32,179 nucleotides of DNA from a virus (taxonomy: Duplodnaviria; Heunggongvirae; Uroviricota; Caudoviricetes), in the IMG/VR virus record IMGVR_UViG_2939521961_000007; one strand, 5' to 3'. Below are positions 15,001 through 18,000 of this stretch, one piece after another. Each line of letters begins with the position of its first letter. Positions within the stretch are counted from its first letter, which is position 1. Position numbers: made by a program.

Positions 15001-18000
15001 CAAACAAAACCCGCCCACAAGCGGGTTTTGTTGTGCCACTTATCTCGGATAGACATGGTGAATGCGCTGGTGGAGGAGATAAGGGTGATTTTTGTATGCT
15101 TGCAACATTGATTTCGTAACGTTATTATCCTGCGCCCGGCCCTTTAGCTCAGTGGTGAGAGCGAGCGACTCATAATCGCCAGGTCGCTGGTTCAAATCCA
15201 GCAAGGGCCACCAACCGCCACTAGCCATCAGGAAAGAGCGTCAACCCTTTAAGTTGAGTGTGCGAGGTTCGAGTCCCCGGTGGTGGTCCATTATCGGTAT
15301 TCTGCGTTGTTAGCTCAGCAGGACAGAGCAATTGCCTTCTAAGCAATCGGTCACTGGTTCGACTCCAGTACAACGCGCTACACTTATTTTCCCGGCTCGC
15401 TTTTGCGGGCCTTTTTTGTATCTGCGCCACGCCCGGCGCATACCAACCACAGAGCCTTTCGGGGGGGGGGGGGAGCTTACGGAGTGGTCAGTGTGACTTT
15501 CTCTGTGGGCAGATCGCTCCCGGGCGTTGGCTCACCCACCCAAAGGAACGTCACGATGTTTGGTATTTTTGGTAAAAAAAGCCCGCAGAGCGGCAACGGA
15601 AATTAAAAAGTTTGAAAAACGCGATCTGGCACAGGTGGTGATTAACGCCGCCTACCTGGTGGCCTATGCAGATGGTGAATGTGAGGCTTCCTAGAAAGCG
15701 AAGATCGAACAGGTACTGCGTAATCAGCCTGCGCTGTACGCGTTTACGTCAGAAATTAATGCGATTAGCGCAACCATTATCGGTCAGCTGGATACGAACT
15801 TTAAAACTGGTCGTCGTGCGGCGTTACGTGAGATCGAGGATGTGAAACACGATACGCGTGAAGCGGAAGATGTGCTGGATGTGGCGGTGGCCATTGCGGA
15901 GGCAGACGGCGAAATTGAGCCGGAAGAGCGCAAGGTGCTGGAAGAGATTGCCGGTGTTCTGGGTCTTCGTCTGGAGAATTACCTGTGACGGTAAAACTGC
16001 GCCTGACTGTGGCTGCACTCCTGCTGTTTCTGGTGGTGATGGTGGATTTCACCAGCAGAATCATGTCGGTGCTGGCGGATGGGGTGCTGGTCTGCGGCAT
16101 TATGGTATTGCTGTGGCCGGTGATAAAAAGAAACAGCCTGCATAATGCTTGATTTTTTTGTTTGCTGTTTATTAAAAACACTTCTGCATGGTGAATCCCC
16201 CTGTGCGGTGGGGCAATCAGCAAGAAGGAATATGGGGTAATCGCGGATTCAGGTGCTGATACTGAATTCACCGGGAGGCACCCGGCACCATGCTTTGCCA
16301 CAAAAGTGTTATTTCTGTTTTTCTCAAACTATCATCGTTATCCCTTTATTTTCGGCTGCGCATGGCGCGGCCTTTTTTTTACGACCAGCCACTGGCAGAT
16401 GGTCATCCTGTGATTTGATTCCGCTTCCGGCTTTTTAACTCTGTTCCTCTACACGGGAGAAATTCGATGTCGATTAAACATTACGATGTTATCAGGGCGG
16501 CGTCGCCGTCAGACCTTGCGGAAAAGCTGACACACAAACTGAAAGAGGGCTGGCAGCCATACGGCGGACCGGTTGCCATTACGCCGTACACACTGATGCA
16601 GGCGGTGGCTATTGAAGGAGAGCCACAGGTCGGCCCTTCATCTGAGCCGGATTGGTACTACGTCATCGTACTGGCCGGGCAGTCCAATGCCATGGCTTAC
16701 GGTGAAGGGCTTCCGCTGCCGGATTCATACGATGCTCCGGATCCGCGCATTAAACAGCTGGCGCGCCGCAGTACAGTTACGCCGGGTGGGGCTGCCTGCA
16801 GATATAACGATATTATTCCGGCCGACCACTGCCTGCATGATGTGCAGGATATGAGTACGCTGAATCATCCGAAGGCAGACCTGAGCAAAGGGCAGTACGG
16901 CTGTGTCGGCCAGGGGTTACATATTGCCAAAAAACTGCTCCCGTATATCCCGAATAACGCGGGGATCCTGCTGGTACCATGCTGTCGTGGTGGTTCGGCA
17001 TTTACCCAGGGCGCGGAGGGGACATTCAGTGCGGACACGGGGGCCAGCCAGGATTCGGCGCGCTGGGGTGTGGGTAAACCGTTATATCAGGACCTGATTG
17101 CGCGCACCAAAGCTGCATTACAGAAGAACCCGAAAAATGTGTTGCTGGCGGTGTGCTGGATGCAGGGAGAGTTTGACATGAGCGCCGCCACCCACGCACA
17201 GCAACCTGCGCTGTTTACAGCCATGCTGACACAGTTTCGTGCTGACCTCTCCGTGTTTAACGCGCAGTGCCATGGTGGCAGTGCTGCAGATGTGCCGTGG
17301 ATTTGTGGTGACACGACGTATTACTGGAAAAATACCTACGGCACCCAGTACAACACCATTTACGGGGCGTACAAAAACAGGGAGAGTGAGGGCGTTTATT
17401 TTGTGCCCTTCATGACAGACGGTAACGGCGTCAATACCGCCACTAACGCGCCGGCAGAAGATCCGGATATTCCGGCATCAGGATATTACGGTGCGGCATC
17501 GAGAACGAATGGAAACCAGGTATCATCAAACCGCCCGACACATTTCAGTTCATGGGCGCGCAGGAGCATTATTCCGGATCGTATGGCAACCGCTATTCTG
17601 AACGCAGCCGGGCGCACCTCAGCCTTCATCAGTGGTAAGGCACCGGAAATCAAACCCTCGCCCGGCGGCAACACGCCATCGGGTCCGTCTGCAGATACGT
17701 CCGTTCGCACAATCTCCCTGCTGCCGGCAGCCGGAGAGGCTGCTGCGCAGGGCTGGAGCATTAAGGATGGCGGAATTCAGTTGTCAGATGGTGTATTTAA
17801 GATCACCAAGCAGAGCAATAAAACCTGGTCCCTGACGCATCCGGTGGATGACGCAATTACCCTGCTGACACAGGGCGGCAGACTGACCTGTAAGTTCCGC
17901 CTGTCAGGCGCACTGACCAACAATCAGTTCGGGCTGGGGATTTATCTGTATACGGATGCTCCCGTTCCTGATGGTGTGGCGATGACGGGTACCGGTAATC

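Follow-up and report, generated by a model that had tools for sequence, protein, structure and literature searches.

The stretch of DNA that we analysed, called the window below, comprises 32,179 nt of IMG/VR virus record IMGVR_UViG_2939521961_000007. It is the late region of a lambdoid prophage, in which a DUF968 gene is followed by RusA, the antiterminator gene Q, a pR'/tR' pair, a tRNA cluster, a terminator, a run of 13 G residues (G13), a TerB-family gene, a DUF3927 gene, a match to the Rfam family STnc100, a nanS-p-type sialate esterase gene and the lysis genes. A 501-bp stretch of the window recurs with 100% identity in at least 39 complete genomes, namely O26:H11 strain 11368 and at least 38 others of serogroups O26, O111 and O103. 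Our subject is the G13 run. We believe, with a probability of about 0.65, that it is a real, slippage-prone mononucleotide microsatellite that arose when the interrupting T of an ancestral GGGGGTG was lost to G, and that the drift of its length has been tolerated because the gene behind it, tciA, is not maintained.

On the + strand the site reads CAGAGCCTTTC-GGGGGGGGGGGGG-AGCTTACGG, with the 13 G residues in the middle. The run lies 43 nt 3' of the T-run of the tRNA-cluster terminator and 82 nt 5' of the TerB ATG. An earlier note, made from the sequence alone, had placed a 13-G run here, upstream of a TerB-like gene, and had called it unusual; it was correct on each count. Elsewhere in the window, G runs reach at most 6 and C runs at most 7, so that no other run of G or C exceeds 7. 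With the base composition of the window, 4.6e-4 runs of G13 or C13 are expected per window, and with equal base frequencies about 0.16 are expected per 5.5-Mb genome. Because these expected counts are so low, the tract is well beyond chance. As for the gene downstream, an intact homologue matches Pfam PF05099 (60.5 bits) and PHROG 632 ('tellurite resistance'). We rejected the idea that the tract is coding: the open reading frames (ORFs) that cross it are open for mechanical reasons only, and the tract lies upstream of the ATG.

The earlier note had also suspected that the tract varies in length, and related prophages with identical or near-identical flanks do carry from G8 to G18. The lengths given here are those of assemblies, of which many are long-read. 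With an 89-bp query that had the tract at its centre we matched 772 complete Escherichia coli records; G13 with identical flanks was found in 42 of them, while 374 differed at one to four positions and 345 at five to eight. Lengths were surveyed in an evenly spaced sample of 60 complete-genome records, in which they were implied from the matched lengths. This sample contained G8 (one record), G9 (three), G10 (eight), G11 (eight), G12 (five), G13 (six), G14 (two), G15 (one) and G13AGG (one); 24 further records had 6-7 nt at the site, and one copy was cut by an insertion sequence (IS). The matched lengths descended by single bases. Eight loci were fetched, and in every one the differences were confined to the run. 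The fetched O157:H7 loci had G9, G10 and G13, the O26/O111 loci had G13, G15 and G18, and a pig isolate had G13AGG. The near-identical isolates FRIK2069 (G10) and FRIK2455 (G9) are one G apart. G13AGG, which is the reading of the O157-type copy in E. coli NJS001 (positions 1001-1092 of locus L123), is either a new interruption that would re-stabilise the run or a long-read consensus error.

A private sequencing error is ruled out by the 42 complete records with exact G13 and identical flanks, which include O26:H11 strain 11368. The warning in the earlier note of a homopolymer sequencing problem thus does not apply to the existence of the long tract, but it stands as a caveat on individual lengths in long-read assemblies.

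We also scanned viral contigs with both flanks fixed and the middle left free, and counted 120 viral-contig loci together with the fetched O26 locus. The interrupted form GGGGGTG made up 97 of these, and G7 (13), G6 (3) and GGGGTG (3) came next; G8, G10, G11 and G12 were each seen once, and the single G13 was the O26 locus. A second scan, for runs of at least G8, returned five contigs from the whole viral-contig collection (G8, G10, G10, G11 and G12; loci L015, L082, L111, L119 and L291). Runs of this length are present in about 58% of the sampled complete genomes that have the locus, as against these five contigs in the viral collection; a probable reason is that this repeated prophage region gets broken or lost in short-read drafts.

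When loci were grouped by flank haplotype, using 100 bp upstream and 540 bp downstream of the tract (640 bp), the eight sequences with no differences from the window had seven lengths (G8, G10, G11, G12, G13, G15 and G18). The O157:H7 haplotype, with 8-9 differences from the window, had G9, G10, G13 and G13AGG, and the O157:H7 version of the prophage ranges from G9 to G14 overall. The nearest remaining haplotypes carry G7 (2 and 6 differences from the window) or GGGGGTG (12 differences). Pure runs, which range from G6 to G18, are confined to few backgrounds and vary there, and related prophages mostly have the interrupted form. This form is length-stable, as across dozens of haplotypes it is seen as GGGGGTG (97) or GGGGTG (3). 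A short fixed run, which the earlier note had set against length variation, is therefore true of the ancestral GGGGGTG allele only and not of the lineage of the window. Relatives in other genera have AGGGGTG or AGAGGTG at this position. The tract thus changes at a much higher rate than its flanks, which is not true of the interrupted allele. This contrast fits the finding that indel rates in E. coli rise exponentially with the length of a homopolymer run (PMC8510543).

The long tracts are linked to lesions in the gene behind them. Intact TerB homologues have an ATG start, a run of six A residues (A6) and 143 residues. The window has A7 at 15574-15580 and its ATG frame ends after 16 codons; RefSeq annotates a pseudogene here and notes an internal stop. 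Among the copies with a tract of at least G8, the ATG was out of frame in 13 of 13 and a TAG stop was present as well in 9 of 13, whereas 69 of 91 copies with the interrupted allele had an intact gene. In O157:H7, TerB is annotated as intact, with a frame that is open from a TTG only, and all copies have an intact tciB-like gene. In the sequences compared, long tracts appear only in copies with a decaying module, and their association with a damaged TerB start fits relaxed constraint. The TerB and DUF3927 genes are the counterparts of tciA and tciB, a moron pair that has its names from phage P1, because PHROGs labels them 'tellurite resistance' and 'TciB-like'; TciA is the P1 name of the TerB-domain gene. 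The A-run in the TerB start is also found as A5 and AAAGAAA. The same GAG-to-TAG stop (15692-15694) occurs on several backgrounds, including eight copies with the GGGGGTG allele, which points to recombination or repeated loss.

Based on these observations, we propose the following order of events. The ancestral GGGGGTG would have been the 5' strand of a helix (P3) in a conserved structured leader. In many enterobacterial lambdoid prophages this leader stands before tciA/TerB, which opens the late operon and is followed by tciB. In a few lineages the interrupting T would have changed to G, yielding a pure G7. This pure run would then have expanded in two closely related backgrounds, the O26/O111/O103 type, to which the window belongs, and the O157:H7 type. 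It would now drift between about G8 and G18, with single G's gained or lost by replication slippage. The expansion may have been tolerated because the module was already damaged, as the TerB ATG is put out of frame by A7 in all copies with at least G8 and the lineage of the window has the TAG in addition. The tract very probably has no function of its own. It may have a tuning role in expression, although we do not consider this the best reading. Table 1 collects the features of the locus.

Table 1. Features at and around the G13 tract, with positions in the window.
Feature	Position	Strand	Basis or remarks
G13 homopolymer, derived and expanded allele of ancestral GGGGGTG	15461..15473	+	sequence; allele spectrum; length differences confined to run
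Q antiterminator gene	14247-14942	+	Pfam PF06323, E = 1e-90; annotation
pR'-like promoter	14926-14954	+	promoter scan
tR'-like hairpin	15003-15032	+	terminator scan
Prophage tRNA cluster	15138..15378	+	CAT anticodon (tRNA-Ile in RefSeq); Lys-like (ARAGORN only); tRNA-Arg TCT
Intrinsic terminator of tRNA cluster, directly 5' of leader	15394..15417	+	terminator scan
Conserved leader, about 135 nt, containing tract	15419..15555	+	near-invariance among copies; cross-lineage identity; pairing counts
P1 helix	15424-15428/15435-15439	+	predicted
P2 helix	15452-15456/15529-15533	+	predicted
P3 helix, tract included	15458-15474/15514-15524	+	predicted; two covarying pairs
P4 helix	15475-15484/15501-15510	+	predicted
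P5 helix	15486-15490/15494-15498	+	predicted
C-rich stretch and Shine-Dalgarno (GCTCACCCACCC-AAAGGAA), alternative long-range partner of tract strand	15530..15548	+	RNAalifold consensus; pair counts; Shine-Dalgarno accessibility
TerB/TciA-family pseudogene	15556..15988	+	out-of-frame ATG 15556; frame open from TTG 15560 only, broken by TAG 15692-15694
DUF3927/TciB-like small membrane protein gene, intact, 55 codons, overlaps TerB stop codon	15985..16152	+	Pfam PF13064; PHROG 1470; WP_000216649.1

The earlier note had expected promoter or leader sequence around the tract, and of the two it is a leader. A promoter scan found no pair of sigma-70-like hexamers flanking or overlapping the tract, and the conserved block begins directly after the terminator. 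This rules out phase variation through the spacer of a promoter, and the tract region is a transcribed leader, not a promoter. Q, the pR'-like promoter and the tR'-like hairpin (14247..15037) define the late transcript that runs through the tract. From just past the T-run of the terminator to the ATG, the leader is almost invariant among E. coli prophage copies. Between lineages its identity is 78-86%, compared with 59-62% for the TerB coding sequence (41-45% for the protein) and 55-64% for the 135 nt upstream of the leader. The leader is kept with TerB homologues in Pantoea, Pseudescherichia and Franconibacter, and also in another 120 viral contigs, which form a second sequence type; in all of these the tract position has AGGGGTG or AGAGGTG. 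It is absent from the Serratia and Pectobacterium TerB homologues (about 50% identity). It is always preceded by an intrinsic terminator, and in the second type it stands directly after pR'-tR', without tRNAs. Between prophage copies (the window and L002-L121) the terminator stem (15394-15417 in the window) differs, with changes on both arms, while the leader a few bases on is invariant; a mosaic boundary therefore lies between the two.

Two contigs have the leader ahead of unrelated genes. In L214 (about 4755-4895, +) it precedes a gene for a 281-aa secreted-looking protein, and in L233 a 146-aa lipoprotein-like ORF, with the leader core at 10927-10982 of the reverse complement (the minus strand of the stored locus). 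In L155 (2272-2328) and L265 (1262-1318) the leader is truncated after the inner hairpin. Its occurrence before unrelated genes and these truncated copies suggest that the leader behaves as a portable module that is not specific to TerB. Rfam 15 gave no match to the leader strand of the window up to E = 1 and none to the leaders of five relatives up to E = 0.1, and we rejected membership of a known RNA family. The opposite strand gave one chance-level match (19 bits against a gathering score of 40). The leader RNA is a more novel element than the tract.

Single-sequence folds of the leader give a long irregular hairpin, with a z-score of -2.1 when the tract is GGGGGTG and of -2.9 when it is G13. 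Two structures were tested on an alignment of 87 distinct leaders. In the local structure (P1, P2, P3 and P5), 96.3% of cells pair, compared with 36-46% in controls with slid partners. P3 joins the tract strand UUC-GGGGG-UGA to UCGCUCCCGGG; in this helix two pairs covary (A-U 62 / G-C 20 and G-C 63 / A-U 9) and several wobble changes are seen, in sequences that are related and in an alignment of which parts were fixed by the search patterns. The RNAalifold consensus contains a competing long-range helix, in which CCUUUC-GGGGGUGAGC pairs with GCUCACCCACCC-AAAGG and would hide the Shine-Dalgarno (SD) sequence. This helix is 96.4% paired and mostly invariant, with 23 broken cells at one tract position. 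For the alternative helix CCACAGAG/CUCUGUGG, the search patterns had fixed both arms. In the local and the long-range fold alike, the T of GGGGGTG has a pairing partner, and this pair is broken in all seven pure-G alleles of the alignment. Covariation thus gives suggestive support for the leader helix. In silico, the SD has a mean unpaired probability of 0.49 with GGGGGTG or G5-G8 and of about 0.2 with G12-G16; the drop is due to predicted pairing of the additional G's with the CCC-A-CCC beside the SD. We predict that expansion has a modest effect on SD access.

Several of these results weigh against a slippage-prone tract that drifts neutrally. The leader is more conserved than the coding sequence behind it, and mutations within the leader may therefore be non-neutral. 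From G12 upwards, tracts are predicted to re-pair with the C-rich stretch, so that SD accessibility is about halved. An expressible target may remain, as the O157:H7 TerB frame is open from TTG and the tciB-like gene is intact. On the side of the data, the independent short-read sample of long alleles is small, with only five viral contigs of at least G8, and some of the length differences among long-read assemblies could be consensus errors.

One rival reading, which we regard as unlikely, is a heritable and reversible rheostat, or contingency-type element. The length of the tract would alter the pairing of the tract strand within the leader and so tune ribosome access to the tciA/tciB start, and perhaps RNA stability, so that subpopulations differ in moron expression. 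In favour of it, the tract forms the 5' strand of a helix that covariation supports, and it is able to pair instead with the C-rich stretch that abuts the SD; predicted accessibility is 0.49 up to G8 and about 0.2 at G12-G16; length is polymorphic among near-identical strains; and O157:H7 keeps the open frame and an intact tciB. However, TerB is doubly broken in the lineage of the window, all long tracts are linked to an out-of-frame ATG, and the predicted effect is both modest and purely computational. The tract also lies outside ORFs and not between promoter hexamers. Moreover, the intact, presumably functional copies retain the stable interrupted allele, which is the opposite of what is expected of a selected switch. 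We give little credence to a related idea, in which the tract lies in the switching strand of a previously undescribed leader RNA of lambdoid prophages in E. coli and other Enterobacterales, Pantoea and Franconibacter among them, where it precedes the first late-operon gene (tciA/tciB, and now and then an unrelated gene). This RNA would alternate between the local hairpin and the SD-hiding helix, and the length of the G-run would be a heritable, reversible dial in those enterohaemorrhagic E. coli (EHEC) lineages that lost the T. If true, E. coli would here offer one of the rare cases of phase variation by a simple sequence repeat, with RNA structure as the means. There is also a slim chance that the long tract is real but that most of its length variation is homopolymer consensus error. 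Long-read data miscall homopolymer length and many complete genomes were built from such data, and the one odd record with G13AGG could be explained in this way. Yet exact G13 recurs in 42 records from many laboratories, draft-isolate viral contigs also show G8, G10, G10, G11 and G12, and the flanking A7 and T6 runs have no such scatter in the same records. In addition, the modal lengths differ between O157:H7 (about 10-11) and O26/O111 (13), which random error would not bring about.

The two remaining alternatives concern an IS and a DNA or RNA structure. ISEc20, of the IS110 family, sits exactly at the tract in the PPompW prophages of O145:H28 (for example at 4083-5541 of L122, phage PPompW_132418), on the flank haplotype of the window. 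Similarity to the window ends inside the tract where ISEc20 starts, and the order is ...CCTTTC-G7, the IS, and G5-ATCATCC; tciA through the lysis genes are missing, and the terminase small subunit gene comes next. In 19 further viral contigs (L272-L290), nearly all copies of ISEc20 are bordered by 4-8 G at one end and 2-5 G at the opposite end, in more than 12 different flanking contexts, and the run at one shared junction varies from G5 to G7. Because nearly all examined copies have such borders, ISEc20 appears to target G-runs, and this tract is one landing site. A copy of ISEc20 inside the window was looked for and is absent. From these facts one might argue that the expanded run is a by-product of ISEc20, and that insertion and excision, or slippage at G-rich junctions, left extra G's behind. 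We find this very improbable. The continuous G6 to G18 series on identical flanks is what stepwise slippage would produce, with no need for an IS; the window has no ISEc20 end sequence; no excision footprint was observed; and excision of IS110-family elements is expected to restore the target. It is just as improbable that the run is a block prone to G-quadruplex or R-loop formation that modulates how the Q-dependent late transcript reads through into nanS-p and the genes for lysis. Within the late operon the run occupies the non-template strand, 5' of the esterase and lysis genes, and the argument is one from position; no data tie tract length to the integrity of the late genes. A three-tetrad intramolecular fold needs four runs of three or more G's with loops between them, or at least 15 G's if a single run is to form it, whereas the run has 13, there are no G3 runs nearby and the flanks have only GG. 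Alleles of at least G15 in other strains could qualify for such a fold.

Some further observations concern the late region around the tract. At 15215-15290 (+) ARAGORN finds a tRNA-Lys(UUU), which the Rfam tRNA model misses at E = 1 and which is unannotated in RefSeq. It has C instead of U before the anticodon in the anticodon loop, and the O157:H7 version of the prophage has a tRNA-Arg in its place; it is probably a decayed tRNA. The short pR'-to-tR' transcript (14958-15032, +) has sub-threshold Rfam matches to OrzO-P (27 bits), isrJ (20 bits) and isrK (19 bits), and this is the place of short pR'-derived RNAs known in other lambdoid prophages. Between the TciB-like and nanS-p genes, at 16157-16329 (+), lies a strong match to Rfam STnc100 (100.8 bits, gathering score 47) that is without the 3' hairpin of the model; STnc100 is also found in L160 (5770-5973). 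A role in anti-phage defence was rejected, as PADLOC gave one marginal match only (E = 0.004).

Homopolymers that are both long and unstable are seldom met with in E. coli; this one is carried by prophages of the main EHEC serogroups O157, O26, O111 and O103. A literature search (tciA/prophage, O157 poly-G or mononucleotide repeats, ISEc20) found no description of the site. In practice, assemblies and variant callers are bound to disagree at this site, and it could serve as a fast-evolving marker that separates very close outbreak isolates. The insertion of ISEc20 at the tract in O145:H28 accompanies the loss of TerB to lysis and helps to cripple the prophage. We believe that the tract is a natural example of how a single base change can make a microsatellite out of a stable helix strand after maintenance of the downstream gene has ceased. 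As a lead, however, the conserved leader is more valuable; it has some covariation support, is not in Rfam, and lies at the position that stx occupies in Shiga-toxin phages.

How does the tract compare with known systems? Like the target sites of other IS110-family elements, it can receive an IS, for ISEc20 lies exactly at this tract in the O145:H28 prophages and its other copies are bordered by G-runs; unlike them, the window carries no IS. The leader resembles SD-occluding riboregulators and RNA thermometers such as ROSE and fourU in that two alternating folds are predicted for it, one a local hairpin and the other a long-range helix that joins CCUUU to the SD bases AAAGG. It differs from them in having no Rfam match and covariation limited to a few pairs, and in its location, as it follows a terminator, heads a phage late operon and is found before unrelated genes too; to our knowledge, no signal or ligand has been described for it. 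With the poly-G/C contingency loci of Campylobacter, Neisseria and Haemophilus, the tract shares an uninterrupted G-run of comparable length and a length that differs among near-identical strains, presumably through slipped-strand mispairing. In contrast to those loci, it is outside an ORF and not between -35 and -10 hexamers, and the gene behind it is already inactivated in the lineage of the window. E. coli has mismatch repair and rarely uses phase-variable homopolymer tracts, and we know of no switching phenotype for this one. Thus, the tract matches contingency loci in mutability but, in the lineage of the window, fails two of their defining features, position and a functional target gene. 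The closest likeness is to the birth of a microsatellite by loss of an interruption: GGGGGTG is stable over dozens of diverged haplotypes, G6/G7 are intermediate, and only pure runs reach G8-G18. Here, this took place inside a conserved RNA-helix strand of a prophage leader, and the T-to-G step is found on several backgrounds, through recurrence or recombination. With these particulars, the tract is best filed as a new example of a microsatellite born by interruption loss.

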